A stretch of 64,000 nt of DNA from Candidatus Bathyarchaeota archaeon (GCA_963807605.1 CAWECG010000003.1:352001-416000), one strand, 5' to 3'. Shown: positions 21,176-64,000, counted from the first letter of the stretch. Notes: generated by a model from the letters alone, not told the origin. Numbers and translations: made by a program.

Positions 21176-21212
21176 ATGTGGTCAGAGAGTTCAGTCACCC
21201 AGTATGACAGAC

Positions 21213-27400: not shown

Positions 27401-28085
27401 CAAGCAATTCCACGGTTTGGAGTAAGAATGAGCGTTGAAAATCGATCCAAGCTCGGCTATATTGCGGATTTTTGATGATTTCAGCCAGTGACGTCTCTAG
27501 GTTTTGCAGGAGGTTGTCCTTTAGGAAGTTGCGCAAGCCTTGGGGCATGGTCTGTACGCCACCCCAGGTGAGCAGCATCTGTTCAGTTAAGCGCCACTGC
27601 GACTCTTCTGCGTCTTCTCCATTTGCCATTGTCAGAATTTCATTGAGCTTCAAATCTCCCAAAAAGAACTCGTCGAGTGTCTGCTCATCGTGTTTAGCTT
27701 GCTTCAACTTGTTAAGCCATACGTCAAAGAGGCGCTCCTCCATATCGGTGAGCCGCTTGCTTCGAACCAAGCGCTTTTTGACTCCTTGCTTGGCTCGAAA
27801 TTCTTTTCGCTTGTTTCTGATTGCCATTGATAGAGCTGCTGCCATGGCTCGTTGAATATCATGATTTGGGGGTACCGAAATCTCCTTGGCAAGATCTTCA
27901 ACAAGATCGGCAGAGATTCCGCTGAAGATGCCGGCACCTGCTTGGGCATAGCCTTCTATTATCATGCTCAGTGCTCCACCAGCCAAATTGCCCAAGATGC
28001 TGCCGATGGGACCGACAGCTGCAGCGCAACTCACTGAAGCGATCAATCTGAGCGCATTTCGAAAGGAGTAATGCACAGATCTCAC
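21411..28085 (-). CDS. NACHT/STAND NTPase with a very long TPR-like solenoid (NLR/Avs-like), 2224 aa
   Basis: FVGRE, Walker A SPAGGGKS, Walker B IIVDGLDE, GGLAIYL, wHTH YSH..IAE, then about 1300 aa of A...AKQIDD...R..AL..IA repeats. Confidence 0.85.
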   Translation of the reverse strand: MRSVHYSFRNALRLIASVSCAAAVGPIGSILGNLAGGALSMIIEGYAQAGAGIFSGISADLVEDLAKEISVPPNHDIQRAMAAALSMAIRNKRKEFRAKQGVKKRLVRSKRLTDMEERLFDVWLNKLKQAKHDEQTLDEFFLGDLKLNEILTMANGEDAEESQWRLTEQMLLTWGGVQTMPQGLRNFLKDNLLQNLETSLAEIIKNPQYSRAWIDFQRSFLLQTVELLDKLKIRLTDLTEEQRQEFDELKLRLNTLATVPSLLAQLAQSVVQLLSLVHEGISRMEEISHERSEALNRIAHTIEDLKELTSGRFIQEGETVEYRRRQHDERVLRELTERTPFVGREDSIFRLNQFVLSGTGYLLTTSPAGGGKSSLMAHWLNSLASQKNDLKMCYHFLSSKWGTEDFNGFLACLSEQLLRVHNMTGEIWESEPLKLRAIITSVLSNPHPSRLVIIVDGLDEARDAQHPGEFAFRKGLFPETLGENSVVIFTARATEGEATTRKLCDQLGLQSMKNFLLPELGAAAVKELLLISGNERLKTKAEDAAFVSQLLKITGGLAIYLRHLTEELKQTNEQHWREIIDKLPSKFEDFVAQIANAGKVRQEWDEALCILAFAKSRLSESDLMELTGLRKRDFVSLPWEVRRWLTIERENNLNFYFYSHSAIAEGYRRYAFSERDAQSYRQKLLEYCANWRESKSSYAMRHYAEHLLEENQIDALYKLARDNAFASAQKETLIDEPTVTLRTIQMALVAAIRSDDAASMVEFSILHARQKLGTTEETPLQALRMGNLQRAWQLADLLEIEYCSLWYLLLAWALKEKRLNNQAIQTLERLSLKELTSLSGWQGLCAFCLLLKLHDIQSDVISELVKSLLGDLQSSTNTKYLSTPALFGKAVKLARIAHEESWQASALHSIVVAHIKEGKLEEAIATIDQADDEPARELAFESVTKAYIEKMEFERAIATAGRIDSKEPRVSTLVKIAKAQTGSGQKEEAHKVLEEAIANAKQIDDKRSRASAIADIAKALAALGRKEEARELLEEAIAAVRQLLDTAEGTMTLADVTEAMVELGEGEVAGSFLLKALANAKQIDDKRSRASAIADIAKALAALGRKEEARELLEEAIGTAKQIHDKWKRSSALSSIVDTQAEMGEFKQAITTAKQIEDDWRRGWALAGIAETEAREGKFDQAIAAVSQIDNQMVWASSLPSVFASIARMLMKKGDVGHAITLAKQIDNEWHRAFALTGIAEAQFRMGEFKQAITTAKQIEDLTKRASAIADIAKALAALGRKEEARELLEEAIGTAKQIHDKWKRSSALSSIVDTQAEMGEFKQAITTAKQIDSVERSSALQSVILAQLRRDEFEQAITYAREINDEQKRVSIQASILESIVKIQLERDEFEQAMVTAAQIDDVQERSSAFESIVEDQIRRGEFKQATTTASRIEKGVIRVRALAEIAKAQTGSGQNEEAHKVLEEAIANAKQIDDKDSQVFAFAEIAKAQARTGQKEEAHKILQEAIATAKQIDDVHSGNLIFQNLAWAQAEIGESEQAIAFAKEMGSQQDLTLLFMAQAQAERGEIEQAIVTAKQIDAQLEKSSALGDIVEVLVKKGEFPQAITIAKQENRAEGRIFARRAILESIARAQADRGEIEQAIATTRQAADRWETVSYLARIAGSETRKHQKEMVDRLLKEAIKIEEMIDRAPWRVSALKKIATAQIKVGKFEQVIMTLERINGDKGRASAIDAISNSLAELDHKVGTRELLEEVIATAKQIKNDGERGWALATIAVAQAKSGQKEAANRLLEEAITITERIDDMRSRVVALSFVAVAQARLDQKDGAHRLLEKASSIAKNIDDASSRDSALTIIAIAQAETDELSQASSTTAIIENEPQRAASLASIAAAQAKAGQKEAARESIEEVASIEKHIGDEWIRTFTLKNIVVALNRMNEFARAVDTANQIDDATSRVLTLTDIAVAQAKSGQKEAANRLLEEAITIAKQISAAWSHAEALADIACAQAELNRKDDAHRFLGEATAITESMDGVLSRLSALVDIAVAQAKSGQKEAANRLLEEAITNAKRTGDLERLLIFKDIIRAQAEIGPYEQAIIIAKQEHIFGQSSFEPIVEAYVRKGEFEQAINAAKHMDDEMFRVPALAEIARAQATRGLVEEALLTTGNILTDRATHLVRVAEAVAETGNREKFKLLLMPCAQYLEAADVVCSLLVKFYPEQVTKVAQILH
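24088..24821. repeat. identical ~206-bp intragenic duplication (24088-24293 and 24616-24821)
   Basis: Two blocks offset by 528 bp that match by eye; a third partial copy lies near 24976-25080. Confidence 0.85.
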
Positions 28086-35814: not shown

Positions 35815-37299
35815 ATGAGCATTGTGGTCAGCGTACTCCAAATATCGGATTTGCACAGGTCGAAGGATACTCCTGTCTCCAATGATTTTCTTTTGTCGTG
35901 CTTGCTCTCAGATATTGACAAACATGCAACGGAATCGCCCAAAATTCCAAAGTGCGACCTCATAGTCATTACAGGCGATTTAGTGGCTGGCGCTAAGATA
36001 GATGACGAGAACGCTCCTGACACCTTAAAAAAACAGTACGCACAAGCGAAGGATTTCCTAGTCCGGCTTTGCAAGAAATTGTTGAAGGGGGACTTAAGCC
36101 GACTCTTCATTGTTCCAGGGAATCATGATGTTTCCTGGCCAGCCAGTAGGAGATCCATGGAGAGGGTTGAAGACGTGGGCTCTATTGATGTTCCAAACGC
36201 ACTTGCAAGAGTTAACAGTCCATACCGTTGGTCTTGGAAGGAACTGACCATGTATCGTATTAGGAGTATGGAGGAGTATGCGGAGCGACTTTCGAGCTTC
36301 AAGGAGTTCTTTGATGATTTTTATCAGAGCCTCAAACTTAGATTTAGTCTCCAAGATCAGAGGCAAGCATTGAATTTTGTCACACCTGACGGCCGAGCCC
36401 TTTTTACGGGATTCTGTTCTCTCCATGAAAATGATTGTTTCAACCGACGAGGTAAGATATCAATTGACGACATCGCTCGCAACAATTTGAGCATCAGAGA
36501 ATCAATAATGAACGAGATTTCTTTGAAAGTCGCTTTTTGGCATCATAGTGTCGAGGGAACTGGATACCATGATGATCACTTAAACTCCTTTGAAGTTCTT
36601 CCGCACCTCATAGACCACGGCTATGCCCTGGGTCTGCATGGGCATCAACACAAAAGCGCTGTTGTATCTTATGCCTATAGTCTGAATCCGAAACTAGTAA
36701 TGCCAATTATTGCGGGTGGTTCGCTATGCGCAGGTCCATACGATATCCCCCCCGGTTATAGAAGACAGTACAATATCATTGAGATCGACGATGCGAATGC
36801 AAGAATAAGGGTTCATGTTAGAGAGTGGTTCGACGACACCATCTGGGCTCCTGCCAGACTTCAAGAATTCGGTGGAAAGAGCTGCATGGAAGTAGACATG
36901 CCAATCCTGCAGGAAGTTCTTCAGACATCAAAGCAAAAGACAAATGCAGCGGTCATCCAAGCGGTCCAACAAGGAGAAGCGTCCGTCCGAGCTAAGGACT
37001 ATGATAGTGCCTTGATAGCTTTAGCTAGCATCCCGAGAGATATTCTACTGGTTCGCAAGCTGCTTATAGAGTCATTCCAAATGCTGGGCCGATGGCCGGA
37101 GCTAATTGATCTCATTGGAAATCCTACGAATACCGAAGAACTCGCCCTGATGGTAGATGCCCTGGCCAAAGTCAAGGATTTCTCGAAGGCTGAGAGAATA
37201 TTGGAAACGTGTTCTAACGAGCCGGAAAGATATGATCGCACCTTCATTGATGAGTTGAGGAAGAGATTGGACGCTGAAAGGAGATATGTGGGCGTATGA
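35815..37299 (+). CDS. calcineurin-like metallophosphoesterase with C-terminal TPR-like helices
   Basis: QISDLH, ITGDL, VPGNHD, WHH, LHGHQH, YNIIEI. Confidence 0.85.
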   Translation: MSIVVSVLQISDLHRSKDTPVSNDFLLSCLLSDIDKHATESPKIPKCDLIVITGDLVAGAKIDDENAPDTLKKQYAQAKDFLVRLCKKLLKGDLSRLFIVPGNHDVSWPASRRSMERVEDVGSIDVPNALARVNSPYRWSWKELTMYRIRSMEEYAERLSSFKEFFDDFYQSLKLRFSLQDQRQALNFVTPDGRALFTGFCSLHENDCFNRRGKISIDDIARNNLSIRESIMNEISLKVAFWHHSVEGTGYHDDHLNSFEVLPHLIDHGYALGLHGHQHKSAVVSYAYSLNPKLVMPIIAGGSLCAGPYDIPPGYRRQYNIIEIDDANARIRVHVREWFDDTIWAPARLQEFGGKSCMEVDMPILQEVLQTSKQKTNAAVIQAVQQGEASVRAKDYDSALIALASIPRDILLVRKLLIESFQMLGRWPELIDLIGNPTNTEELALMVDALAKVKDFSKAERILETCSNEPERYDRTFIDELRKRLDAERRYVGV

Positions 37300-39620
37300 T
37301 GAGTGAGAGAATAAAGTTTCAAATCGATGTATCACGGATTTTGGAAGTACTTACCAGGCAGATTTACGATTCTCCGTATGCATTACTTCGTGAGAACATA
37401 CAAAATGCTTACGATGCAATTCTGGTACGAATGTTTAGGAAGCGCACGAGCTTTGACCCTTTGATAACAGTCACTATCACAGAACGGATGGTTAAGGTAG
37501 AAGACAACGGAATCGGGATGAGTTCTGATGAGCTCAAGAACAATTTCTGGCGTACAGGGGCAAGCGGCAAGAACACAGATGAAGCACGTTCAGCAGGCGT
37601 CGTAGGAACTTTCGGAATCGGGGGACTGGCGAACTTTGGAATTTGTCGGATTCTGACCGTTGAGACGGAATCAATGAGAGATGGCACACGGACGAAATCT
37701 ATCGCTGATCGAGATTCTCTTTCACTCGAACAGGACTGTATTCTGCTTGAGAGACTGACCCCCACCGGGCAGCCAGGAACGACGATTACAGCCGAATTGG
37801 CGTCAAATCACACAATTGAGGTTGGTAATGCAATCGCTTACCTGCAGCCATTCGTTAGCCACATACCGATGCCAGTAATAGTCAATGGCATCCTAGTAAG
37901 TACAAAACCTCTGGAAGAATCTTGCCCTAGTGATGCATCTCGTTGGACACGTTCTGTTGCAGGATGCACAGCCCAATCGTGGCAATGTGATCTTGAAATC
38001 AGAATCTCTGAAAATGGCGTCGTCTGGACCAGTATCGACAACATCAAGCTAAACGGGACTTCGTTAGAGGGTAAGGTAGTGCTAAAACAGGGAATGGGTC
38101 AAGTTATGGCATTTCGAAGCGGTTTTGGACTAGCTAGGACAGGTGTGTTGTCGTACTATACGTTTGGAGGCGCCGCTGATATGAGAATACTTCAGCCCAC
38201 CGCAGGACGTGATGCATTAACTGGCCAAAGTATCCAGACAGTTCAATCTCTGGTTTCTGCCGTTGAGGAAATGATCGCGCCAATTATCGCCGAGACACAA
38301 TACGTGGATTTGAATACGTCATTCATGAATTGGGTGGTTCATCGCAACAGGTACGACCTTTGTGGAAATCTCAGCGTTACTATCATGCCCGGGGAGAGAA
38401 AGATGAGCCTGCAAGAGGTTTCAGAGCTTTCGAAGCGAATGCCCGTGAACTCCTATAGCGGCTTCGACGAAGCTATAACCAAAGCTTATGCCTCTGATGA
38501 GAATCCGCTCATACTTATCTCTCACAGCAACCCTCGTGCTCAATGCGAAGAAAATTACCTGGCTCGCTATGCCAAAGTAACTAAGGTCTCAAGCGAACCG
38601 CAGGCCGTCAGTGTTCGACCCGAATCTTCTTGGACGATGGCAGAAGCAGCATTAGCTTTCAGGCTTGCACAAATACTGGACAATGACTACTTTGTTCCAG
38701 TGAGGATTCAATACGGAGAAATATCGCACAATCTTCCAATGCTGGTAAAGGAAGACACAAAGCCGACTCTGCTGACGTTATCATCCAAGAATTCCTCAAT
38801 AGCAATGCTTCTGCAATGCTATGCATCCGACTATTCAGCTTTCGGTCCGTTCGTGAAAGATTTCATAAGGAATGTCGTTTTCCAGCGTATCGCCCATCTT
38901 GTGCCGAGTAGCACAAGAGAAGGCGCTGAGAGTTTTCTTAAGATGCTACGTCGACAGCGTGAGACTTTCGAATACGATTTGAATGATATGCGCAGAATGG
39001 AAGAGGTGATCGCTGGCTTCTCTAAAGGAGACTTGTCATTTACTGAGGTGGTAAACGTAGCGCTTGCCACAGCTCAGAAACAACAGCAAGTAGTTTCCGT
39101 GCAGGACATGCGTTCAGCTGTTTCTGTGATTCCTGATGTCGTTCAGTACCAGGAAGTTTTGCAAAAGGAAGAATCCGGGGCCGCTAAAGAGGTTCTGTTC
39201 CCCTTTTCACCAAAACCTTCGATACTTCGCCCAGATGTTGAGACAGACGCAAAGCTTCTGGTCTTGGATGAAACGGAGAACACGTATGGGTTCAAGGGTT
39301 TGCTAAGATTATCCGAAAAGGCGTACAATGACAAGGGGGAATTTTTCTTACAGCCACACAGTACAGAAGTGATTTGGGGAGGCCAACGCATAATATTCAT
39401 CTTCAGACACATGTCTGGAGCATTTGGGTTCTATTACGATGTGCAATTGAATGAACTTCTGTCTATTCCGTCGGCGGGAAGAATCTTCGAAACCTTGACA
39501 ATTGTGTTAAAGAACTCGATATTTATTCCGATACCTTCAGATCTGTATCAGTATTTTACACCAGTGGGAAATGAAAAGAAAAGATTCGATGTGAGGTACG
39601 ACATTCTGTATCCCGAGTGA
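37296..39620 (+). CDS. Hsp90/GHKL-type ATPase with long uncharacterised C-terminal region
   Basis: IYDSPYALLRENIQNAYDA, VEDNGIGM, GASGK, VGTFGIG, PGTTI; ATGA overlap with the upstream gene. Confidence 0.85.
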   Translation: MMSERIKFQIDVSRILEVLTRQIYDSPYALLRENIQNAYDAILVRMFRKRTSFDPLITVTITERMVKVEDNGIGMSSDELKNNFWRTGASGKNTDEARSAGVVGTFGIGGLANFGICRILTVETESMRDGTRTKSIADRDSLSLEQDCILLERLTPTGQPGTTITAELASNHTIEVGNAIAYLQPFVSHIPMPVIVNGILVSTKPLEESCPSDASRWTRSVAGCTAQSWQCDLEIRISENGVVWTSIDNIKLNGTSLEGKVVLKQGMGQVMAFRSGFGLARTGVLSYYTFGGAADMRILQPTAGRDALTGQSIQTVQSLVSAVEEMIAPIIAETQYVDLNTSFMNWVVHRNRYDLCGNLSVTIMPGERKMSLQEVSELSKRMPVNSYSGFDEAITKAYASDENPLILISHSNPRAQCEENYLARYAKVTKVSSEPQAVSVRPESSWTMAEAALAFRLAQILDNDYFVPVRIQYGEISHNLPMLVKEDTKPTLLTLSSKNSSIAMLLQCYASDYSAFGPFVKDFIRNVVFQRIAHLVPSSTREGAESFLKMLRRQRETFEYDLNDMRRMEEVIAGFSKGDLSFTEVVNVALATAQKQQQVVSVQDMRSAVSVIPDVVQYQEVLQKEESGAAKEVLFPFSPKPSILRPDVETDAKLLVLDETENTYGFKGLLRLSEKAYNDKGEFFLQPHSTEVIWGGQRIIFIFRHMSGAFGFYYDVQLNELLSIPSAGRIFETLTIVLKNSIFIPIPSDLYQYFTPVGNEKKRFDVRYDILYPE

Positions 39621-39629
39621 ATAAAAGAG

Positions 39630-39722
39630 CGATTCTTTTAGCTGACCTTCCCTGTGAATAAGTCTAGTTGGAATGAAGGCTTCAGTTAATGGTAACTCAT
39701 TGTGGATTATTTCGTCTCCCAC
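39630..39722 (-). pseudogene. Orc1/Cdc6 N-terminal remnant
   Basis: IIHNELPLTEAFIPTRLIHREGQLKE is the typical Cdc6 N-terminus; similarity is lost after about 30 codons. Confidence 0.7.
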
Positions 39723-39895
39723 TATTGTCTTTTAGTGGCATACATTCATATCAATTTCGTTCCTCTAGAAGTCCCGCTAGATGATAACTATTTATGTTTT
39801 AAAAACAAATGAATATTTGATTGCCATAATTTCCGAGAAATTCAGGACATGTGATTGTGCTAGTTTTCCCAGCCTCGGCGTAACGGCACAATTGC

Positions 39896-41149
39896 ATGTC
39901 CCTAACAGATATTTCAGGCAGAGGGTTATGTGATTGTGTGAATCTCAAGAACAAAATCTATGGGTACGAGAAGAAAATTGAGAACATCTTAAGAAGAATT
40001 AAGGAGTCATCTATAAACGATGATAGTAAGGAGAAAATCCTAGAATTTTATGATGAACTTCTGGCTCAAGGCTACAGTAAAGCGAGAATAGTAAAGTACC
40101 TAGATACTCTGTGCAGAATTGCCGTCATGTTGGGCAAGCCCTTTGTTGAGGCAAACAGGGACGATATCGCATGTTTCGTTCGTAAGATCGAAGCAAAAGA
40201 TTACTCTGAATGGACAAAGCACGACTACAAGGTCATTCTGAAATTATTCTACAGATGGCTCAGGAAGGCCGAAGAGTATCCGGAAGAAGTTAGATGGATT
40301 AAACCGAGAATAAAGAACAACAACCTCTTACCTGACGGACTTCTAACAGAGGAGGAGATCAAAGGCCTGGCTGAGGCAGCGGGTAACCCAAGAGATAGGG
40401 CACTAGTTCTGGTACTCTATGAATCCGGCTGCAGAATCGGAGAGATCCTTTCCCTAAGTATCAAGAACGTCCAGTTCGATGAGTATGGTGCCCAATTGAT
40501 AGTCAGCGGAAAAACAGGCTCAAGAAGGGTAAGAATAATCTTCTCAGCCCCAAGACTTGCTCAATGGATTGAAAACCATCCATTAAGAAATGACCCCGAT
40601 GCTCCTCTCTGGGTCAGCTTGGGCACAAGAGATAGGAATGAGGCCTTAACGTATGGCGCTGCGAAATCAGTAATCAAGGACCTCGCTTCAAAAGCGAACA
40701 TCAGAAAGCGCATTTATCCACATCTTTTCAGGCACTCCAGAGCCACCTACCTCGCAAATCACCTAACAGAGGCTCAGATGAAGCACATGTTCGGCTGGGT
40801 CCAGAGCTCGAAAATGGCAGGCACCTATGTCCACCTCTCCGGAAGAGATGTTGATAAACCGCTACTGAAATTGAGCGGAATAAGATCTGATTACGAACAA
40901 GAGTCTAAAGAATTTCAGATTAGATTTTGTCCCCGGTGCAAGACAAGGAACTCGCCGGATTCCAAATTCTGCAATTCCTGTGGCCTTTGCTTTGATGTGA
41001 AGAGCACCGTGCAAATCGATGAGATGAGAGAGAAAGCTGATAGATTGATGACGGAACTTGTGAAACAACCTGAAGTCTTGGCTGTTCTTCTTAAAGCCCT
41101 TGAGAAATCCGAGAGATCAAGCCTTGACACGAAATCCCATGAGATATAG
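39896..41149 (+). CDS. tyrosine recombinase/integrase with C-terminal zinc ribbon
   Basis: LYESGCRIGE (R), GKTG (K), HLFRHSRAT (HxxR), FGW (W), TYVH (Y); CPRC...CNSC. Confidence 0.95.
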   Translation: MSLTDISGRGLCDCVNLKNKIYGYEKKIENILRRIKESSINDDSKEKILEFYDELLAQGYSKARIVKYLDTLCRIAVMLGKPFVEANRDDIACFVRKIEAKDYSEWTKHDYKVILKLFYRWLRKAEEYPEEVRWIKPRIKNNNLLPDGLLTEEEIKGLAEAAGNPRDRALVLVLYESGCRIGEILSLSIKNVQFDEYGAQLIVSGKTGSRRVRIIFSAPRLAQWIENHPLRNDPDAPLWVSLGTRDRNEALTYGAAKSVIKDLASKANIRKRIYPHLFRHSRATYLANHLTEAQMKHMFGWVQSSKMAGTYVHLSGRDVDKPLLKLSGIRSDYEQESKEFQIRFCPRCKTRNSPDSKFCNSCGLCFDVKSTVQIDEMREKADRLMTELVKQPEVLAVLLKALEKSERSSLDTKSHEI

Positions 41150-51838: not shown

Positions 51839-53542
51839 GTGGCCGACGATCACTTGGATGATTATGCAAAGTGGGAGAGATGGGCGTACGAGCAGAGGTA
51901 CGGACAGGGAAGCTGGGACGCAGACCACAGCGTGAGTGAGGACACAAGGACAGAAGGACACGCAGGTTTCCGAGATTACAAAGATCCTTTCAAGACATAT
52001 TGGAGCGACGAGCATTCTATCGGCATTTTGGAGAGGGATAGGAAGTTCATCGGAGTTGCTTGCATAGTTGCCAAGGAAGTTGTAGACAAGGAGAGTTTTG
52101 TCAGAAGGTTCGGATTGAGCTTTGAGAAGGACATTCAATGGAAAGCTGCCGCTAGTCTTCTAGATCATCTCTCAAGATCTCCTTTGTTCAAAGCAGTTCT
52201 CGTCACAGTCAACAAGGTTCCTTTCAAGCTTGAGCCAGATGTACCTGAGGAATTGCAGGGAAGAACGAACTGGTCAAAGAGAAATTACGAGTTCCATAAA
52301 GACAAAGCTGACACGTTTAAGCTCCAACTTGAACAGCAGAGGAATTCTCCTGTGTTTGGCGGGCCTTTTCCAAAATATTTGCCAAAGCAGATGAAGGAAG
52401 AGGAAGATTATGCCAAGAAGTTCCTCGAACTGTCCAAAAGCCTGGAGATGCAGGCTCAAGAACATCTCAAACAGTATTTCTTGATAAAGGAAAACCTGTT
52501 TGTTGCTGCTCTGTTTCTCTACGTCTACACAAACCCATCCGATGACTTTAATCAAACTGTTAACGACATCCTTGCCAGAAGAAGAGCAGCCGAGATTGAA
52601 GCGAACCTGACTTACTTCGTCAAATGCTCGCCAGTCAAAGACCCTATAATCGCTCTCAGACCGGAGTTTTTTCTTCTTTGGGACGAGGTCCAACCATACT
52701 ACTCCTTAGCCCTAGCAGACGATTGCGCAGGTTTCGGCTCAAACAAAGAGATAGCGGCGATCATGAGGAAGATGTTTACTTCCGCATTAGAACTTCCAAA
52801 GGAAGAGTCAATCGAAGAACAAATTCACATACCTTCAGAGGAAGTCAGCCTCGAAGGACCAAGAAAGGCATTGCTTGGGTACATTGTCGAATCTGTTGTC
52901 AAGGGCAAGATTACAAAAAGGAGAGTGTACTTTCCTCTTGACGTTCTGACCGGACATGGAATAATCTTCGGTAAGACACGTGTGGGTAAGAGCTTTTTTT
53001 CCTTGATATTGATTCAGGAAGCTTTGGCAAATGGGATAAGAGTTGTTGTGTTCGACCCACACGGGACTCTGGCTAACAGACTGAAGGAGAATGAATTACT
53101 AAAAGTAGTGTACACTAAAGGAAAGGCAGACATCACAAGCGAACTGGAAGAGATCTACCAAGATGCTTCTGCTTGGCCTGAAACAAACGAACTGAAATTA
53201 CTAGTTGTACTTGATGAGACCAGGCTGTTAAGAGCGAAGAATCTTGCCCAATGTTTGAATGAACTAGGTAAACGGGGTTTAGGCTTCATTCTTGTGACGC
53301 AGTACTCGACGAGCATTCCACCTGAGGCAAGAAATCTTGGAACTTACTTTATCATGGCAGCCATGAGCGAGACTGAGATTCAACGCTTTAAGGAAGTGAC
53401 TCTACATCCAAGTTCAAAGTTGATAACAAGATTACCTAGGGCGACGAGTTTTATCTTTAGTCCCTACTGGTATCCTGAGCCGTTCTTTGTTAGACATCGA
53501 AAGATGACCGAGAGCAAGGTCTCAGGAGATGCTGTCAAATAG
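51839..53542 (+). CDS. HerA/VirB4-like (DUF87) ATPase
   Basis: HGIIFGKTRVGKS, VFDPHG, VLDE, RGLGFILVTQ. Confidence 0.8.
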   Translation: MADDHLDDYAKWERWAYEQRYGQGSWDADHSVSEDTRTEGHAGFRDYKDPFKTYWSDEHSIGILERDRKFIGVACIVAKEVVDKESFVRRFGLSFEKDIQWKAAASLLDHLSRSPLFKAVLVTVNKVPFKLEPDVPEELQGRTNWSKRNYEFHKDKADTFKLQLEQQRNSPVFGGPFPKYLPKQMKEEEDYAKKFLELSKSLEMQAQEHLKQYFLIKENLFVAALFLYVYTNPSDDFNQTVNDILARRRAAEIEANLTYFVKCSPVKDPIIALRPEFFLLWDEVQPYYSLALADDCAGFGSNKEIAAIMRKMFTSALELPKEESIEEQIHIPSEEVSLEGPRKALLGYIVESVVKGKITKRRVYFPLDVLTGHGIIFGKTRVGKSFFSLILIQEALANGIRVVVFDPHGTLANRLKENELLKVVYTKGKADITSELEEIYQDASAWPETNELKLLVVLDETRLLRAKNLAQCLNELGKRGLGFILVTQYSTSIPPEARNLGTYFIMAAMSETEIQRFKEVTLHPSSKLITRLPRATSFIFSPYWYPEPFFVRHRKMTESKVSGDAVK

Positions 53543-55021
53543 CGATCCATTCATTTCATGGCAACAGGAAGGACATCTGAATACGTCCATCGTATCCCCT
53601 CGCAGTGCGCCGCAAGCTGGACAGCGTCCTAAGGTCAATTTGCGGAAAGGAAACAGCAGTAACACACCTAATGTGATCATCAAGATGAACAGCAGATCTG
53701 GAGTGATAACTGCCGAGATGAAGAATACGATCAGTACCAGTTCCACCAGCAGAAACTTAGTATTCTTTGAGAAATATGGGTACGCGAACAATATCATTGT
53801 CATCACAAATGCAAGGAGAAGAGCAAGAGCAATCAAGGAGATCATGAGTACGGCGTTCAAAGCTGAAGCCAAGACAAGATCAGCGATAGCTCTTACTGCG
53901 TAGGTTTGGTAGCCAAGAAAGCCAATAGCGACACCGGCCAAGAATTTCAGGAGCTGAAGGAACAGTCTCAATCCCTTCATGGCCACTAGGAAAAAGAAAG
54001 GTAGAAACATTGTAGAAAAGAGAGTGAAGCTTGTTGTCAGTAAAGCGACTTCAGGAAGCAAAGTCACATTCCAAGCAAACTTGAAAGAGATCAGGGAGAT
54101 ACTGACACCAGATCTGAAAAACGCAAGGAGCAAACCCAGTGTCAATCCATACTCAATTCTGGGAATAAAGAGCCAACTATTGTCCCGCAGCATCTTGATT
54201 CTCTCTATGGCAGTTGGTCCTCCTTTGATCTTCTCCTGCCAACTACCTTTAGTAACGAACAGTTGAAGGTTCAAAATGAGTTTCATTGTTGTTTTTTGGA
54301 GTGAAGCAACTCTTGCATCTGCATAAGCTTCTCTAACCCTCAAGAGTTGACCATTCACTAGATAGATTGCCAGCGTCGGCACTAGATATAGCTCCCTCAA
54401 CCAGAACGAATGAAAATCGAAGAAGAATTCTGACACAAACGGTCGTGTCGCAAGAAAAAAGGTCGCGTGAACGATCAGAAGAATCAGGTAAGACTTTATC
54501 AACTTCTCCGCAATCGTATGTTTCACAAGATCCCTGTTTTTCAAATGAGAAAGCTCGTGAAGCATTGTTGATTCGACAAACTCGCGCTTTACGTAGAACA
54601 TCTTGCAAAACCCTTCACTAAGTGTCAAGTAGGTTTCTCTATGGTTTCCAAAGATCACTGCCCGGTAGTCTGTAGCATTTGACCACAAGATGGTTGGCGA
54701 GGATACATCTATCTCTCCGGAAAGCTGGTCTACGAAATTACGCAGCTCCGGACATCTTGAGTCGATTCTTTCGAGGTGCTGTTTTCTTATCTTCCTTTGA
54801 GGATCGTAAAGATAGAACAATAACGTAAGCAATGTCAAACCCATAACTGTTAAAAGCGAAAATGACGCGAAAATGATTTTTCCTACGATGCTGGTAGCCA
54901 GCGGGATTAGTCCGACATAAAGTGCTCCTATACTTATCGCTGGAGATACAGCAGTGATTACCAAAATGATGAACAAGATAGTATGATATGATGGAAAGGC
55001 GAATGGGTTTAGCCTATTCAT
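53522..55021 (-). CDS. M48 (HtpX-like) membrane metalloprotease with C-terminal zinc ribbon
   Basis: LNPFAFPS, HELSHLKNRD, REAYADAR, many TM segments, CPAC..CPSC. Confidence 0.85.
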   Translation of the reverse strand: MNRLNPFAFPSYHTILFIILVITAVSPAISIGALYVGLIPLATSIVGKIIFASFSLLTVMGLTLLTLLFYLYDPQRKIRKQHLERIDSRCPELRNFVDQLSGEIDVSSPTILWSNATDYRAVIFGNHRETYLTLSEGFCKMFYVKREFVESTMLHELSHLKNRDLVKHTIAEKLIKSYLILLIVHATFFLATRPFVSEFFFDFHSFWLRELYLVPTLAIYLVNGQLLRVREAYADARVASLQKTTMKLILNLQLFVTKGSWQEKIKGGPTAIERIKMLRDNSWLFIPRIEYGLTLGLLLAFFRSGVSISLISFKFAWNVTLLPEVALLTTSFTLFSTMFLPFFFLVAMKGLRLFLQLLKFLAGVAIGFLGYQTYAVRAIADLVLASALNAVLMISLIALALLLAFVMTMILFAYPYFSKNTKFLLVELVLIVFFISAVITPDLLFILMITLGVLLLFPFRKLTLGRCPACGALRGDTMDVFRCPSCCHEMNGSLFDSIS

Positions 55022-55150
55022 CTCTCAGATCTCTCCATAACAAGCTCTTAATATCCTCGACAGCCAAGAGTATTTCCAGATACCTCTCCCTCAGCAATTG
55101 CACTGTCACTTGCTTGTTCTGGCTTTTTGTTTTCTGGCGTTCGTTAAAGC

Positions 55151-56749
55151 TCAGATTGCAGCTGTTGGACGCTCCCAGCCATCTAGAGTTATGAAGAATT
55201 CTTGGTTGATGGGATGCGAGCAATGCCGACATCGAAAAAGACTGAAAGGGACGATCGACTTACGACAGAACGGACACTTCGCATACTTGTTGGACATTAA
55301 TAAGAGACTCAAGCCAAAGAGAAGCACTGTAATTCCAATCGCGTAAAGAGCCGGCTCGCCCAAGTTTAGGATATGGATAAGCCATCCCATAGGTAGAAGA
55401 ACCAGAACAAAGTTGGGAATAAGTAACTTCAACTGCGGCCCAAGGTTAAGAGAAAAGAAAGAGAGACTGAACTGAAGTAGAAGCTTCTGAATAAGCAAGA
55501 ACATGTACGTGGCTATGAAGAGATAGAGCAACAGATCAATCCCCGGACGGAGCGGCAAGATCGTCAAAGTAAGCACTGAAGTCAACACTATGCTGATCTT
55601 CAAGGGCGTCACAAATGTATGGAAAAGGTCTTGTCGAGTGTTCCGAATGTTGCTGAGAATTGAGACCCAGAATGGCAAGCACATCAATAGGAAAATGAAA
55701 TAATTGGTTGCAAGAAAGAAAACACCTACAAACATAGAGAATGGCAGATATCCGATCACATTCCACACGATGGCCAAAGAGCCGAGAGAGAGAAAGCCAG
55801 ACAACCACGAAAATCCGCTAACCGCCGCGCAGATGAGTCCTCTTTCAATAGTGTGCCTGAAAATGTCTTGCTTTATGATTTTGATCCTTCGTGCTGAAGT
55901 TAGAAGAAAGGGAGAAAATAGTCTCGCAGGGAAGCTTGACTGTGGGAATCCGCTGAAAAAGCTTAGCACGTTGAGCATATTTCTGTCGGTTTTCTCAATA
56001 CATATAGTTCTGGCATCCGCGTAGATCTCTCTCCATCTTGCTATGACGTTGTTCAGATAGAAGACCGCAACAAGGGGAATCAGATAGACCAGCATAACCG
56101 CCGGCAACCAGTCAAGAATAAGATTATGGCTAGAAATTAGGGCAAAGAAAATACTGACAAAAGTGACCACAGCAAACGATCTCCATAGGCTTTCAGCGAT
56201 TTCATGTTGCACGAGATCTCTATTCTTGATATGTGATAGCTCGTGAATCAGAATCGTCTCTACCAAGGATTGAAAAGTGTGCCACTTTTCGCAGAGCCCG
56301 GTTGAAATCAAAAGCCTACCATGCTTTTCGGAGCCAAAGGCCAATGCATTTATTTCTGCACTATCGACGTAGAATGTCTCAGGAGTCTGCAAGTTCATTC
56401 GTTCGCACAGTTGTCGAAGAAGCGTAAGGATCTCTGGACGCTGGACTTCAAGCTTGTATTGTCCATATTTTTTCATCCTGCTTTTGATTGTGTGAGTGTA
56501 GAAAACATATGTCAGGACGGGAAACAGAAAGAGGTTGAACGGCGCAAGAACGATCAGAGGATACCTAGCAGGGTCCAACGTAAAAAGGGGATACAGGAAA
56601 TATGTAATGACTGAAACAGCTAGACTAGAAGCTGGGCCAACAAGAGACATCAACATATAGACGAAGTAAAGCGTTAGTTCTGATGGGAAGACGAATGGGT
56701 TAAGTAGCTTCCTTTCCTTCGCAGGATCCTCGACGCTGCACGAGTTCAA
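55151..56749 (-). CDS. M48 (HtpX-like) membrane metalloprotease paralogue
   Basis: LNPFVFPS, NALAFG, HELSHIKNRD, REIYADAR, CPFC..CRHC. Confidence 0.85.
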   Translation of the reverse strand: MNSCSVEDPAKERKLLNPFVFPSELTLYFVYMLMSLVGPASSLAVSVITYFLYPLFTLDPARYPLIVLAPFNLFLFPVLTYVFYTHTIKSRMKKYGQYKLEVQRPEILTLLRQLCERMNLQTPETFYVDSAEINALAFGSEKHGRLLISTGLCEKWHTFQSLVETILIHELSHIKNRDLVQHEIAESLWRSFAVVTFVSIFFALISSHNLILDWLPAVMLVYLIPLVAVFYLNNVIARWREIYADARTICIEKTDRNMLNVLSFFSGFPQSSFPARLFSPFLLTSARRIKIIKQDIFRHTIERGLICAAVSGFSWLSGFLSLGSLAIVWNVIGYLPFSMFVGVFFLATNYFIFLLMCLPFWVSILSNIRNTRQDLFHTFVTPLKISIVLTSVLTLTILPLRPGIDLLLYLFIATYMFLLIQKLLLQFSLSFFSLNLGPQLKLLIPNFVLVLLPMGWLIHILNLGEPALYAIGITVLLFGLSLLLMSNKYAKCPFCRKSIVPFSLFRCRHCSHPINQEFFITLDGWERPTAAI

Positions 56750-57546
56750 GAACTACACACAATCTTCTTCAGTCTGCGCAAGCGTTCCTCAACAAGCGTT
56801 TGTTTTCCCAGATATCTTTCTCTCAATATTTCGTAGTAATTCTTGCTCACTCTGCCTTCGCTGAAGCCCTGTTCTAATTGTCTCAGTGTATTCTTGATAT
56901 TGTACAGTTGACTGTTGAAATCCGTAACATCCTCGATCAGGGAGAGAAACCTTTCCTCCTTTTCATGCTCATCCTCTATGGATATCGCTGCAACTAGTTG
57001 GCCTATGTCATCCGCAGACATGAAGTGCAGCTCTCTCTCGCTGAACGCCGACCTGTAGTGAATAGCCATCTCCTTAATTCTTTTTCTTAGAGTGTGGAGT
57101 CGTTCTTCTAGATCATTCTCAGTGATCTGACCCTTTGCAAAACTTACGTAAATCTCATCCCATTCTTTAGCTATCACTTTTCTCTGGTGCTTTAGCCAAT
57201 CCGTGTTTATTTGACTCTTCAATTCCTCAGAATAATCCTCGGATTTCAGTATGTTTTCAGGTGGCTCAATCAGAACCTTTCCATCTTCCTGAATGAAACA
57301 TATGGGGAAACTATCAATGCATTTCCCCGCCTTCTTGTCATGAGGTACATCATATCTTACTTTTCTCCAATGCTCCTCAACTATCACTATCGGTATTGTT
57401 ACTTTAGCTGAACCGCCGCTGGGAATGGCGACCCGCATGTCTACGTACCGAAGTTTCATGCTTAACCCTACCAGGGGAACCATGATAAAATTCCATCGAT
57501 GACCGGTAACAATAGCAGAACGGTAACATCGCTCTTCTGACCGCAA
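56746..57546 (-). CDS. hypothetical coiled-coil protein with two SHOCT-like motifs (start uncertain)
   Basis: FAKGQITENDL and FSEGRVSKNYYEIL helices; 4-nt stop/start overlap with the M48 gene. Confidence 0.55.
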   Translation of the reverse strand: MRSEERCYRSAIVTGHRWNFIMVPLVGLSMKLRYVDMRVAIPSGGSAKVTIPIVIVEEHWRKVRYDVPHDKKAGKCIDSFPICFIQEDGKVLIEPPENILKSEDYSEELKSQINTDWLKHQRKVIAKEWDEIYVSFAKGQITENDLEERLHTLRKRIKEMAIHYRSAFSERELHFMSADDIGQLVAAISIEDEHEKEERFLSLIEDVTDFNSQLYNIKNTLRQLEQGFSEGRVSKNYYEILRERYLGKQTLVEERLRRLKKIVCSS

Positions 57547-60294: not shown

Positions 60295-60984
60295 GTGAAA
60301 AATATGGTATATCGAAAAGTTGTGCCGCAGGGCCTTTTGAACCAGAACAGAGTTGTCGTCGAGGGATCTCCGGATGAATGTCTTCCAAGCGGACAGGTGT
60401 ACGTTTCACCAGCGTCTGGAAGAGTATACAACCGAGACAAAGGCGATAAGCTAGCGAACCTACCGCAGGACGCAACTGAGATCCCAAAGACAACCTGGTG
60501 GTTGAAGGCCCCGCAACTGTGGAGAGGGAGAGGAGCAGACAAAGCTCCTCAAACCCCTTTTCCAGTTCCAAAGTCTGTCGCGGAAGCAAGTCAGGAGACA
60601 CATTGGTACTTCACTCCAATCGGAATAGAGCGACTCAAAACCGAATACCAAGAGATGAAACGATACTTTCCAGACTTCGAGCTGTACCAAGACGACCTTG
60701 GCATGCTGTTGTGGATGGGCAAACTCGAAGGCTTGGGCGAAATAAGACTTCACTATCCTGCCGATTATCCAATCAGTCCTTTCAACGTAGCCGTGATGGA
60801 CACAACTGAATCAAAGGATGTCAAATTGAACGAAAAGATATCTGAGTACAGAACACTCGGCATCACACCGACCGGCGCATTGATCGTGGTTTTGAGATTT
60901 TTCCTAAAGGAGAGAGGAGCAAATGTGGTATCAGACAATCCAAGGACAGAGGAGACTCCAAGTAGAGATAGAACAGATGCGTAG
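60295..60984 (+). CDS. two-domain protein: unknown N-terminal domain + Cys-less E2/UBC-like fold
   Basis: ERLKTEYQEMKRYFPDF...LWMGKL...LHYPADYPISPFNV matches the UBC helix-1/strand/YPxxYPxxP pattern; no Cys in this domain. Confidence 0.65.
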   Translation: MKNMVYRKVVPQGLLNQNRVVVEGSPDECLPSGQVYVSPASGRVYNRDKGDKLANLPQDATEIPKTTWWLKAPQLWRGRGADKAPQTPFPVPKSVAEASQETHWYFTPIGIERLKTEYQEMKRYFPDFELYQDDLGMLLWMGKLEGLGEIRLHYPADYPISPFNVAVMDTTESKDVKLNEKISEYRTLGITPTGALIVVLRFFLKERGANVVSDNPRTEETPSRDRTDA

Positions 60985-61273
60985 GAATACTTCATTCTCG
61001 CTCAATCGAGACGATGAAAACGGAAAGCTTGCTTGGAAAGGCCATCTTGGCGGCCACGAAATTCTGCTTGAGTATTCTGACAGTCATCCGGGCGAAAAGA
61101 TGCGAGTATACGTATCGAACCCGCGACTGCCATCCGTTAACCTTCACATCCATTCTGACGGCACTATCTGTTACATGAAGGATCAAGAGTGGAGCCCTGA
61201 CTGGACTGCGTATACTGTCTATCTGACAATAATCAGGTTTCTGGATGATTTCCACAGAGGCAGAATGATATGA
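60923..61273 (+). CDS. E2 ubiquitin-conjugating-like enzyme
   Basis: RRLQVEIEQM...WKG...LEYSDSHP...HIHSDGTICY...EWSPDW: UBC active-site segment with catalytic Cys and WSP. Confidence 0.8.
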   Translation: MWYQTIQGQRRLQVEIEQMRRNTSFSLNRDDENGKLAWKGHLGGHEILLEYSDSHPGEKMRVYVSNPRLPSVNLHIHSDGTICYMKDQEWSPDWTAYTVYLTIIRFLDDFHRGRMI

Positions 61274-62571
61274 TTCATCCGAACAAAGTAATCATCCACA
61301 GAGACGTTCTTCGAGAGATCCGCGAGGACGTGAAGCATTGGAGTGAAAGACAATTGGAGTCCGGCGGCTATCTTCTGGGCAATATCCACACACCGACTCT
61401 AGTTCTTGAGATCACTGATTTCATAGATGGAGGACCAAATGCAATACACACCGGGATTAGTTTCTCACCTGACAATGAATATGCAACCGTGGCTAAAGCA
61501 GAGCTTCAAGCAGCTAAGCCAGATATTCGTTTGGTCGGCGAGTATCACCTTCATCCTTGGAGCGGTTATCCTCGTCCGAGTGGAGGGGACAAACACCAGC
61601 TTCAGCAGATCAAGAACAGCCTAAGACCATGGTATGTCATAATGTTAGCAACACCCAATGGATTCAGGCTTTGGGACTTGGATGAAGAAACAGCGTTCAC
61701 CGAATTGCCTCACCAAGTCATCCGGGTCTCAACACGCATCGATCAAACAGAATTGCTTAACAGGATCTCAGAAATCACACAGCATGAGCTTCTTGCAAAG
61801 AAACGGGTCACAATAATCGGTCTGGGTAGCGGCGGCTCAGTAATATCGAAATATCTTGGAAACACCGGAATTGGCAACTTCATTCTCATCGACGATGAAA
61901 GACTTGAACTTACAAACGTAATTCGTCATGAAGGGACACTAGAAGAGATAGGGAGGCCCAAGACTGAGATCTGCAAGAGAATTATTGAACTGCACAACCC
62001 GTTTGCAGTCGTCAAGACATTTGAGATAGATGTCCTAGAGGAGAAAAACAAATTCGAGGAAATCGTGACAAGCTCAGACCTGGTTATAGCATCCAGCGGT
62101 AATGCAAAAGTCAATAATCTGATCAACAAAATTTCCATTGAAAAGAATATTCCGGTAGTGTACGGCGGCATCTTTGAAAAGGCATCCGGAGGCTATGTCC
62201 TTCCAGTAATTCCTAACAGAACCGCATGCTTCAACTGCCTGTTCAATTTGACAGCGCAATCGTACCATGTAGATAAATCAGCTGCACAAGCATACAATGT
62301 TCCCGAGGCAGAACTACACAACCAACAAGGACTATGGATAGACATATCGATACCCGCTCTCTTTTTGGCAAAGTCTGCGTTGATGATACTCCAGGGAGAA
62401 GTGCTTGAGCACAACCTGCTGTTATACAAGAATCCATTCGATCTCAAGAAGTTCAAAATAGACAGAAGAGGCGACTGCTCAGTCTGCAATTTTGACGGAT
62501 GGCTAGAGAAGCAAGAAGTTCAAAACAAGAAACGATCAATTTTCTCGAGGTTCAAGAGAGCCAGACAGTAG
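61270..62571 (+). CDS. JAB/MPN+ isopeptidase fused to an E1/ThiF-like adenylyltransferase
   Basis: JAB: ESGGYLLG, GEYHLHP...PSGGD. E1: IIGLGSGGS, IDDERLELTNVIRH, IGRPK, zinc CFNC / CSVC. Confidence 0.9.
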   Translation: MIHPNKVIIHRDVLREIREDVKHWSERQLESGGYLLGNIHTPTLVLEITDFIDGGPNAIHTGISFSPDNEYATVAKAELQAAKPDIRLVGEYHLHPWSGYPRPSGGDKHQLQQIKNSLRPWYVIMLATPNGFRLWDLDEETAFTELPHQVIRVSTRIDQTELLNRISEITQHELLAKKRVTIIGLGSGGSVISKYLGNTGIGNFILIDDERLELTNVIRHEGTLEEIGRPKTEICKRIIELHNPFAVVKTFEIDVLEEKNKFEEIVTSSDLVIASSGNAKVNNLINKISIEKNIPVVYGGIFEKASGGYVLPVIPNRTACFNCLFNLTAQSYHVDKSAAQAYNVPEAELHNQQGLWIDISIPALFLAKSALMILQGEVLEHNLLLYKNPFDLKKFKIDRRGDCSVCNFDGWLEKQEVQNKKRSIFSRFKRARQ

Positions 62572-62581
62572 CTCTCCACAC

Positions 62582-63262
62582 ATGATTTCTTTGGTGACTG
62601 GAATGAGCAGTACACAGAATATTTGGCAGGTTCTAGAGCAAACATTGGCGCGAGTTAACAATCGACTAGGTCAAGTTGAGAACAGGCTCGTCCAACTTGA
62701 AAACCAGCAAGAAAGACCACGAACGATGTTCAGTGAGAGAAGGGTTGTCGAGGCTGCCGGGCTTCTTGGTGGGAGAGAACTTCTAACCTCTGCAGATAAT
62801 AGCATCACAAGAGTAACACACCAACCAGTCTGCGATATATGCGGTCGCGTATTACGAATTGAGGACGAAGAATTCAGCATCTGTCGTTCATGTGGAAAGA
62901 AGCTGTGCCGAGAATGCGGAATAAAATACTCGAGTGCACTCTATTGCATTGCCTGTCTTAGGCGACAGGTTCCTCTCGAGAAAGCCTCGTACAAAATCCT
63001 TGTAGCAGTGGCAAACTGTGTAACTCGGGCAAGCACAATAGCTGAGCTGGTTAAGTTACCGAGGAAGAACGTGGAAGACCGACTGACCGAACTATTCAAC
63101 ACTAATCTGATCATGAAACAAGGTCTTTCAATATTCTCTCGGATCTCTGTTACCGCCGAAGGACTGGAAGCTATCGGGGTCTTTCGTGGAGCGTACGGGT
63201 CAGACGAGGATGCCCTGCAGTTTGACAGTGAGTTACGCAGATACTTGATGACCCGAGGGTGA
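62582..63262 (+). CDS. coiled-coil + 8-Cys zinc finger + winged-helix protein
   Basis: Heptad N-terminus; CDIC, CRSC, CREC, CIAC; wHTH STIAELVKLPRKNVEDRLTEL...VTAEG. Confidence 0.7.
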   Translation: MISLVTGMSSTQNIWQVLEQTLARVNNRLGQVENRLVQLENQQERPRTMFSERRVVEAAGLLGGRELLTSADNSITRVTHQPVCDICGRVLRIEDEEFSICRSCGKKLCRECGIKYSSALYCIACLRRQVPLEKASYKILVAVANCVTRASTIAELVKLPRKNVEDRLTELFNTNLIMKQGLSIFSRISVTAEGLEAIGVFRGAYGSDEDALQFDSELRRYLMTRG

Positions 63263-63266
63263 GGTT

Positions 63267-63467
63267 GTGGGCTTCAGAGATTCAATGGACAGAGCAATAA
63301 CCGCGTTGATCGTTCTGGGCTTGGCCCTCTTCAGCATTGGGCTGATTTCATGGATCGCCAATCTACTGCAGAGATACAACCTATCATGGGAACTTCAACT
63401 AGCCGCGATTGGTGTGGTCTTGATTCTTCTCGCGTCGATTGCTGCGAAGCTATTCTCAAGAGATTAA
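63267..63467 (+). CDS. small 2-TM membrane protein
   Basis: Two hydrophobic helices; GAGG RBS; operon spacing. Confidence 0.6.
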   Translation: MGFRDSMDRAITALIVLGLALFSIGLISWIANLLQRYNLSWELQLAAIGVVLILLASIAAKLFSRD

Positions 63468-63501
63468 GTCTGAACAAAATGCCGGTCTGGGTGATAGACT
63501 C

Positions 63502-64000
63502 TTGGTAGAACACACGTTTGCAGCAAACAGCATCAGAGAGCGCAAAGAAAAAGTTGCCCAGCTTCTTGACAAACAACTGGTTCGATCATCAATACTCTCC
63601 CAACTTGCGGATGACACGACTGATTCAATAGAGGGCGACCTAAACGCATATCTCACTATCCATTATCTTCCAGAACTCGCCGGAGAAGTTCCAGTATTCA
63701 ACTATCCAGATCCGACCACAGCGGACGGCGATTTTCTAATCGGAGCAATCAACGATCACAACAAAACGTTTCGATTCGCCACACGAAAGCAGGAGATGAT
63801 TCGCCATCTCCTTTTTGCAGGCTCAAGCGGAAGTGGTAAGACCAATCTGGCTCTGCTGCTAGTCAGTCAGTTTCTCAGAAAAGGCAAGCCCTTTCTCGTG
63901 GTTGACTGGAAGCGCAACTATCGTGACCTGATTACTCTCCCTGAAGCAACCGGCAAGGAAATACTAGTCTTCACGGTCGGCCGTGAAGTCTGTCCATTTC
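63502..64000 (+). CDS. HerA/VirD4-like (DUF87) ATPase, truncated by window edge
   Basis: Translated by hand from TTG after GGTGA: ...EMIRHLLFAGSSGSGKTN...FLVVDWKRNYRDL. Confidence 0.8.
   Translation, partial: MVEHTFAANSIRERKEKVAQLLDKQLVRSSILSQLADDTTDSIEGDLNAYLTIHYLPELAGEVPVFNYPDPTTADGDFLIGAINDHNKTFRFATRKQEMIRHLLFAGSSGSGKTNLALLLVSQFLRKGKPFLVVDWKRNYRDLITLPEATGKEILVFTVGREVCPF

Follow-up and report, generated by a model that had tools for sequence, protein, structure and literature searches.

To our knowledge, the E1/E2/JAB systems that have recently been shown to conjugate protein, namely Cap2/Cap3 of cyclic oligonucleotide-based antiphage signalling systems (CBASS), Bil and Bub, are bacterial in every characterised case. 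Here we analyse an archaeal cassette of this kind, which begins near the right end of a window of 64,000 nucleotides (GCA_963807605.1 CAWECG010000003.1:352001-416000; "the window" means this whole stretch, contig C3:352001-416000) in the genome of a Candidatus Bathyarchaeota archaeon (2.65 Mb, five contigs, 94% complete). Its six genes encode, in order, a protein that joins an N-terminal domain (Nd) to an E2-like domain, a small E2, a JAB-E1 fusion, a protein with a zinc finger and a winged helix-turn-helix (wHTH), a small protein with two transmembrane segments (2-TM), and a HerA/FtsK/TraG-like P-loop ATPase. The closest precedent is the Type I Bub pathway, where BubAB is a fusion of a ubiquitin-like protein (Ubl) with an E2 that is cut after Gly by the JAB, and BubCD is a JAB-E1 fusion whose crossover loop holds no Cys and a single Tyr that is invariant and needed for catalysis (Ye et al., bioRxiv 10.1101/2024.11.21.623953). 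For class 6e of Iyer et al. (2006; PMC1779556), an accessory protein that binds zinc has been noted. We read the cassette, with a probability of roughly 0.5, as a Type I Bub-like pathway with altered parts, in which Nd, a module that also occurs as a separate first gene, may take the place of the modifier.

Nd is an independent module located where modifiers sit

In an AlphaFold2 model of the first protein (24 homologs), Nd consists of five strands with predicted local distance difference test (pLDDT) scores of 64-86, and the C-terminal domain reaches about 90 beyond a disordered linker that varies in length and sequence among homologs. The core of Nd, a domain of 45-70 amino acids (aa), is conserved in both clades of an alignment of 28 sequences, for none of which Pfam holds a family. 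Its profile matched 36 proteins among 1.84 billion representatives. At least 11 Nd proteins stand alone; they range from 38 to 99 aa and end 0-4 residues past the conserved aromatic motif, two of them with Gly-Gly there. Five contigs with a stand-alone Nd were checked, and on four (L100, L101, L102 and L103) a true stop codon and an E2 gene directly after it were verified. The DNA of the fifth, P0106, was not readable; its Nd lies inside a 2.3-kb contig with another gene after it. Nd is the first gene of a series Nd, E2, JAB-E1 in L100, L101 and L103, which a homologous DUF87 ATPase continues in L101, and the 784-bp contig L102 stops inside the E2-like gene after Nd.

Separate Nd genes also occur in L016 and L048, as open reading frames (ORFs) of 44 and 38 aa that end one residue past the invariant Gly of a second clade. 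In this clade, which includes G100 and G209, one protein combines Nd with an active Cys E2, and the Gly comes after the aromatic motif. Nd is present in every locus that holds sequence upstream of the E2, and is absent from remote E1/E2 loci. The remote group (L055-L082 and L094-L097, mostly marine contigs together with Dehalococcoidia and Chloroflexota) has E1 genes of ~413 aa downstream of one for a protein of 372-413 aa that is E2-like in part. Loci of Halorubrum in which two genes are E1-like were found as well, and these too are without Nd.

A small gene in first position, a conserved motif at the extreme C-terminus, a short variable tail and an optional fusion to an E2 together are what marks a modifier of the Ubl type. 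As a module Nd is independent and lies where modifiers sit, and these features suggest, at about even odds in our estimate, that it may be the modifier of the cassette.

Conservation of the conjugation enzymes

A profile of gene 2 made from 20 family members matched, in the PDB, nothing but canonical UBC E2s (UBE2W at 4e-5, UbcH7, Ubc6 and others), in an alignment that covers positions 8-113 and includes the His...Cys active site. H75, C83 and W90 are invariant, the catalytic Cys coming after the conserved His and before a Trp-x-Pro, and the protein scores 0.005 against Pfam UQ_con and 1e-4 against the PADLOC E2 model. These profile matches place gene 2 in the UBC/E2 superfamily, and to that extent bear out the UBC fold that the earlier note had proposed for the product of the ORF at 60923.

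The C-terminal domain of gene 1 aligns with the gene 2 family (hhalign 98.8%, E 1e-16), with the catalytic-loop stretch replaced. Among its homologs no Ser or Cys is conserved at the catalytic position, and the best Foldseek matches of its model are RWD, UBC and UEV folds (UbcH7, UFC1 and TSG101-UEV), with weak E-values of 0.016-0.2. It appears to be a catalytically dead paralog of the gene 2 enzyme.

Gene 3 encodes one protein of 433 aa with matches to Pfam Prok-JAB (2.9e-6, residues 11-136) and ThiF (4.5e-31, residues 165-404). An alignment of 24 sequences shows no variation in the JAMM residues E30, H93, H95, S104 and D107, nor in the E1 part at the Gly-rich loop, the Asn-x-x-Arg motif, the Lys or the two CxxC zinc pairs. 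From the first CxxC pair up to the QQG motif, a stretch that takes in the crossover loop, Cys is absent from all these sequences, and at least 90% of them keep Tyr342; the same combination of a Cys-less loop and a Tyr was read by eye in L100 and L101. Among the best 60 of 70 matches of the full-length JAB-E1 profile in the PDB, the nearest solved relatives are UBA5, MoeB, MccB, ThiF and Cap2, with PaaA also present; the JAB domain alone found no match among PDB sequences. With their catalytic residues invariant, the E1, E2 and JAB enzymes look active.

Modifier genes in the window and in the host genome

No standard Ubl or CD-NTase gene was found in the 14 kb beyond the window, and whole-genome scans with the ThiS and ubiquitin families gave matches elsewhere in the genome only, none in the window, as the earlier note would have it. 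Its statement that the operon has no free Ubl is literally true; what it missed is that the "unknown domain" of gene 1 is a stand-alone first gene in relatives, and the best candidate for a modifier. The only nucleotidyltransferase nearby is a 193-aa TrmB-MNT protein paired with a HEPN protein. DUF6527 had no match in the whole genome or among the cassette proteins.

A hidden stop after Gly-Gly, reached through a +1 frameshift at 60494-60505, was considered and rejected: frame 0 gives the aromatic motif conserved in 24 homologs and runs on into the E2-like domain, and the +1 frame is open for 17 codons only.

Elsewhere the host carries a ubiquitin operon of the Caldiarchaeum type (contig C1 ~276150-278250; L088 35-2547, minus strand). 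It encodes a ubiquitin of 83 aa that ends in Gly-Gly, a canonical E2 of 194 aa in which the HPN...Cys motif is present, a Ubl-E1 fusion of 413 aa and a zinc-ribbon/RING-like protein of 133 aa.

Gene order and distribution

The six genes of the cassette (Table 1), all on the plus strand, overlap or almost abut from 60304 to ~1.7 kb past the window, gene 6 ending 1682 bases beyond it (L002 5439-7682), and form one translationally coupled operon. Gene 1 most likely starts at the ATG at 60304, downstream of a Shine-Dalgarno-like GAGGTG; a GTG at 60295 falls inside that site.

Table 1. Genes and domains of the cassette, in window coordinates
Feature	Position	Strand	Remarks
Gene 1, Nd + E2-like domain	60304-60984	+	AlphaFold2 model, hhalign
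Nd, residues 1-66 of the first protein	60304..60501	+	beta-rich, conserved aromatic pair at end; candidate modifier
Linker between Nd and E2-like domain	60502..60594	+	variable, disordered (pLDDT <50 at residues 72-97)
E2-like domain, Cys-less, RWD/UEV-like	60595..60984	+	paralog of gene 2 (hhalign)
Gene 2, small UBC-type E2	60923..61273	+	catalytic Cys83 at 61169-61171, conserved His before
Gene 3, JAB (1 to ~140) fused to E1 adenylation domain (~150-433)	61270..62571	+	
Gene 4, coiled coil + four CxxC pairs (double zinc ribbon/treble-clef-like) + wHTH	62582..63262	+	
Gene 5, 66-aa 2-TM protein	63267..63467	+	3' end overlaps ATPase start
Gene 6, 747-aa HerA/FtsK/TraG-like P-loop ATPase	63439..64000 in window (first 187 residues)	+	

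Hidden Markov model mapping recovered the order of Table 1 in about 35 metagenome loci, and it is kept in four species-representative genomes of Nitrososphaeria; it is also found on contigs whose JAB-E1 homologs share 30-93% identity. Conservation of the order in about 35 independent loci puts the grouping of these genes far beyond chance. The operon of six contiguous or overlapping genes that the earlier note described is present in full, the conserved gene order that it proposed to look for exists, and its picture of a distinct, element-borne E1/E2/JAB conjugation cassette tied to a zinc-finger-wHTH protein, a 2-TM protein and a HerA/FtsK/TraG-like ATPase stands.

Full-length JAB-E1 occurs in three of the 401 genomes of the phylum, the window's own counted, and this patchy occurrence points to mobility. 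One close JAB-E1 homolog is labelled "Nitrososphaerales archaeon", and the only named genomes with relatives are Nitrososphaera, Nitrosotenuis and "Thaumarchaeota" metagenome-assembled genomes; we take the element of the window to be that of an archaeon of the ammonia-oxidising type (Nitrososphaerales). A scan of IMG/VR viral contigs gave no relative, and with JAB-E1 as query, tblastn against plasmids gave MoeB/ThiF genes, an operon resembling Bil in Bradyrhizobium and an Acaryochloris locus that is unrelated, and nothing else.

In two loci, L100 (2347-7660) and L103 (6001-11378, on a 108-kb contig with ParA), Nd stands alone and is accompanied by an E2, a JAB-E1, a P-loop ATPase of another kind (weak TraG P-loop match) and a Replic_Relax protein. 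Their G+C content of 50-58% and the Replic_Relax neighbour make it likely that they are bacterial.

Zinc-finger-wHTH, 2-TM and ATPase proteins

The eight Cys of the gene 4 protein lie in its four CxxC pairs, and seven of them are invariant or nearly so in 12 sequences, one member of the clade being without two. The finger alone matches DZR_2 at 9e-4; RING, B-box, IBR and FYVE matches are weak, as is that to a TrmB-type wHTH (7e-4). A word-based homolog search with this protein returned, besides the query, five close relatives only. Its homolog lies upstream of gene 1 in some loci, and the gene is missing from L100 and L103, so that the zinc finger falls outside the minimal core; the part of E3 or adaptor that the earlier note suggested for it is a putative one. 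We had also considered that the zinc-finger protein is conjugated through its C-terminal Gly, and demoted this idea because the ends are not conserved.

Gene 5 keeps its place in nearly all loci, and its two hydrophobic segments are predicted transmembrane helices that probably hold the ATPase at the membrane. The ATPase itself has Walker motifs and a HerA/DUF87-type core (DUF87/HerA 2.5e-7, TraG P-loop, partial CedD 3e-24), with Walker A Lys134 and Walker B Glu346 invariant. Toward the C-terminus, which also has a wHTH-like segment, H643, E664 and D674 are invariant and an ExE stands at 684/686 (E686 in 18 of 19 sequences). These motifs, which match no family, suggest a PD-(D/E)xK-like nuclease. 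The constant partner of the conjugation enzymes is a P-loop ATPase, which in its archaeal form carries the wHTH and the nuclease-like motif.

In the related loci L016 (12165-14356) and L048 (5332-7538) the ATPase is split in two ORFs at the same point (307/312 aa + 423 aa). A protein of 250-346 aa with a basic N-terminus, Gly/Arg/Tyr-rich in L015 and L016, and an acidic C-terminus comes directly after the ATPase in L013 (13675-15075), L015 (14247-15519) and L016 (14358-15110), and a protein of 112-116 aa follows the ATPase in L013, L014 and L015; neither is present in the window. L010 has a gene of 248 aa in this position (5939-6685).

Setting in an integrative element

The cassette is part of a family of integrative elements of Nitrososphaeria. 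A tyrosine integrase was found in the flank of 16 of the 29 loci of at least 9 kb, some of which are duplicate fetches of one contig, and the window's own cassette lies 2.4 kb from an integrase that adjoins a tRNA.

The tRNA, an intron-bearing one that Rfam detects at 51 bits and ARAGORN missed, has a tyrosine integrase on either side, the two being divergent (L002 10078-12937, window 68078-70937). An exact 17-nt copy of its 3' end lies at window 4470-4486, with host-like genes to the left. The stretch bounded by this copy and the tRNA region holds a further integrase, Orc1/Cdc6, ParB and a DNA methylase, together with a second ATPase (DUF87/VirD4-like) and a pair of M48-like proteins. At 36 kb to the right (C3:457698-457720) there is a copy of 23 nt from the 5' part of the tRNA. 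One copy being of the 3' end and the other of the 5' part suggests two elements that use opposite halves of one tRNA.

Between the cassette and the integrase (L002 7789-9396, window 65789-67396) are a 118-aa FYVE-like zinc-finger protein ending in Gly and then a TrmB-HTH-MNT nucleotidyltransferase and a HEPN protein, which resemble a toxin-antitoxin pair; none of the three is conserved in related loci. Upstream, window 51839-57546 holds the second ATPase (DUF87/TrwB, VirD4-like, 567 aa), the two M48-peptidase-like proteins (499 and 532 aa) and a 266-aa protein. L014 has two M48-like genes upstream of its cassette and L015 has one, so the element backbone is partly conserved. The island's left part (window 12973-28085 and 37296-41149) contains an SbcCD-like pair (Metallophos and an 837-aa SMC-like protein), a further integrase, a 774-aa protein with a GHKL-type (HATPase_c_3) domain, and ORFs of 1000 and 2224 aa without family matches. 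Around related cassettes, restriction-modification (RM), AbiE and GmrSD genes vary.

Discussion

We propose that the gene 1 protein is a precursor composed of Nd, a disordered linker and a dead E2 paralog, from which the JAB of the JAB-E1 fusion would free or trim Nd, presumably by cleavage within the linker. The E1, which has all adenylation motifs and no Cys in its crossover loop, would adenylate the C-terminus of Nd and hand it to Cys83 of the E2, either directly or via Tyr342 as in BubCD. The E2, perhaps together with its UEV/RWD-like paralog, could then attach Nd to targets, and the JAB could reverse the attachment. The zinc-finger-wHTH protein, the 2-TM protein and a membrane-tethered ATPase with a nuclease-like domain would be the machine under control, or an effector that acts on DNA. 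A bolder form of this proposal, which we hold as doubtful and put forward tentatively, is that Nd represents a new kind of small modifier, not recognisably of beta-grasp type and often ending in an aromatic residue in place of Gly-Gly, and that its conjugation by a hybrid cascade of a Cys-less E1 with its Tyr and a eukaryote-like Cys E2 with a UEV-like partner turns a membrane-tethered DNA translocase-nuclease on or off, in mobile elements of archaea and some bacteria.

Several observations weigh against a Bub-like pathway with Nd as its modifier. Foldseek against the PDB and a wide VIA search gave Nd no full-length structural matches but those to ubiquitin, which are non-significant (TM about 0.40, E >1, Z 2.1), and the confidence of the Nd model is middling (pLDDT 69). 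Only ~1/3 of the fused forms have Gly right after the aromatic pair, the window's own clade has no conserved cleavage-site Gly in the alignment of Nd homologs, and in the shortest forms hardly any linker parts Nd from the E2-like domain. The E1 sequence is about as close to UBA5 as to MoeB, MccB and Cap2, and no closer to any solved Bub protein, none of which is among the best 60 of 70 PDB matches of full-length JAB-E1. Cleavage and adenylation of Nd are hypothetical steps; a complex prediction of two copies of JAB-E1 with Nd residues 1-80 scored 0.02 against a mark of 0.32, and speaks neither for nor against binding. The host genome, moreover, could supply the modifier itself: a eukaryote-like operon elsewhere in it encodes a ubiquitin with a Gly-Gly end, and four to five of its genes are of the ThiS family (ThiS/MoaD).

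This last point leads to another reading, in which the enzymes conjugate a host-encoded Ubl, be it the Gly-Gly ubiquitin or a protein of the SAMP/ThiS/MoaD type, and Nd is a targeting, E1-docking or substrate-recruiting domain. Endogenous ThiS/MoaD has been proposed as the partner of Ubl-less mobile cassettes (Iyer et al., 2006; PMC1779556), and an Nd without a conserved terminal Gly would fit. We nevertheless consider this unlikely, since the host ubiquitin already has its own E1 and E2 beside it, and since a host Ubl leaves unexplained both the fusion of the JAB to the E1, as in systems that process a fused modifier, and the occurrence in many lineages, apparently bacterial ones included, of a first-gene Nd that stands alone and ends after its motif. 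It is also conceivable that the E1 activates the C-terminus of the zinc-finger-wHTH protein or of the ATPase, which would be conjugated so as to prime or localise it, as Cap2 does with a CD-NTase. The E1 domain scores against Cap2-type profiles about as well as against ThiF, the zinc-finger protein of the window has Gly as its last residue, and in several relatives a Gly stands 1-5 residues from the end; but such a Gly is found in only ~11 of 27 full-length zinc-finger proteins, the others being varied, the C-termini of the ATPase and the 2-TM protein are not conserved, and L100 and L103 have no zinc-finger gene at all. We regard this reading as improbable.

The nearest solved relatives of the E1 include MccB and PaaA, and a small peptide gene precedes the enzymes in several loci, which would suit an E1-like enzyme that modifies the C-terminus of an Nd peptide by adenylation or cyclisation, with export through the membrane protein and the ATPase. 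We find this very improbable indeed: a UBC-type E2 with an invariant Cys stands beside the E1 in every locus, an intact JAB is fused to it throughout the archaeal alignment, and the ATPase has domains related to DNA (wHTH, nuclease-like motif) and not those of a transporter. The genes might, finally, be syntenic merely as element backbone, with the ATPase, 2-TM and zinc-finger part functionally unrelated to E1, E2 and JAB, and it is true that the upstream M48-peptidase-like genes and the second DUF87 ATPase are syntenic in some loci too. Yet these genes, all six overlapping or abutting, remain together at 30-35% identity and when the zinc-finger gene moves, and in the apparently bacterial variants too a P-loop ATPase gene comes directly after that of the E1, so we give this explanation little credence.

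As to what a Bub-like cassette of this kind would do, a role in exclusion or defence has, in our judgement, an even chance. It is favoured by the precedents of CBASS, Bil and Bub, by the ATPase-nuclease design and by the adjoining RM, Abi and GmrSD genes. Control of the transfer or processing of element DNA is a lesser but real possibility, favoured by the adjoining Replic_Relax gene in L100 and L103; the layout resembles FtsK/TraB, which we take to point the same way. A survey of thaumarchaeal integrative and conjugative elements reports VirB4/VirD4-type ATPase pairs and ParB and finds relaxases lacking; it does not mention ubiquitin-like genes.

If the cassette is indeed a Bub-like pathway, the described systems would gain an archaeal family, borne on elements, whose UBC E2 is eukaryote-like and has a UEV-like partner, and which would stand as a natural intermediate between Bub with its oxyester chemistry and eukaryotes with their thioester chemistry. 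Its modifier would be one that standard Ubl searches miss, and other "Ubl-less" cassettes may hide theirs in the same way. The steady link of conjugation enzymes to a DNA-pump-like ATPase-nuclease points to regulation of DNA transfer, exclusion or defence, in the elements of ammonia-oxidising archaea, whose mobilome is barely characterised.

Comparison with known systems

The earlier note held that the layout is unlike that of known systems. This is right for CBASS, Bil, the 6A-MBL systems and the eukaryote-like archaeal operon, none of which the cassette matches, and falls short in having missed Type I Bub (6E.1) as the closest precedent. Type II CBASS shares with the cassette E1, E2 and JAB without a beta-grasp Ubl, on mobile elements, and the profiles reflect this (E1 domain against Cap2-type profiles 4e-26, JAB against Cap3-type TIGR02256 1e-9); here, in contrast, there is no CD-NTase, the E2 is not fused to the E1, the JAB is, and the E1 has no catalytic Cys. 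The NCBIfam model 6A-MBL_cap2_3 has a cut-off of 320, of which the cassette reaches 97.9 bits, through its E1 part only, and no MBL gene is present in the cassette. A separate small E2 with a Cys, a JAB and an E1 are also the components of Bil, where conjugation of a small protein is likewise expected. BilA, however, is a beta-grasp Ubl, BilC is a separate protein, and the Bil E1 has tandem adenylation domains and a mobile Cys domain, whereas the E1 of the cassette has one ThiF domain of ~240 residues and no Cys domain.

With the eukaryote-like archaeal operon of the Caldiarchaeum type (PMC3082918, PMC5654768) the cassette has in common an archaeal host and a UBC-type E2 with His...Cys. The true ubiquitin ending in Gly-Gly, its own E1 and the canonical HPN E2 of that operon have no counterpart in the cassette. 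The neighbouring active E2 and dead copy of the same fold recall Ubc13-Mms2 and the UEV-E2 pairs of eukaryotes; the pairing is putative here, and the dead copy differs in carrying Nd in front.

The fullest likeness is to Type I Bub. In both, a JAB is fused to the N-terminus of an E1 of single-domain, homodimer type whose crossover loop lacks Cys and has a conserved Tyr, here Tyr342, both have a module fused before an E2-fold domain in the gene directly upstream, and both include a zinc-binding accessory protein and occur sporadically on mobile elements. The E2 of the cassette relies on Cys83 after a His, as in UBC enzymes, in place of the Ser-His of BubB, and its fused E2-fold copy lacks the catalytic loop and any conserved Ser. 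For the fused module of 45-70 aa a beta-grasp fold is at most putative; a terminal Gly is not conserved in the window's clade, and the Gly after Nd is invariant only in the clade with a single active E2. DUF6527 (BubE) is absent, and the cassette adds genes for a 2-TM protein, an ATPase-nuclease and a zinc-finger protein, in archaeal hosts.

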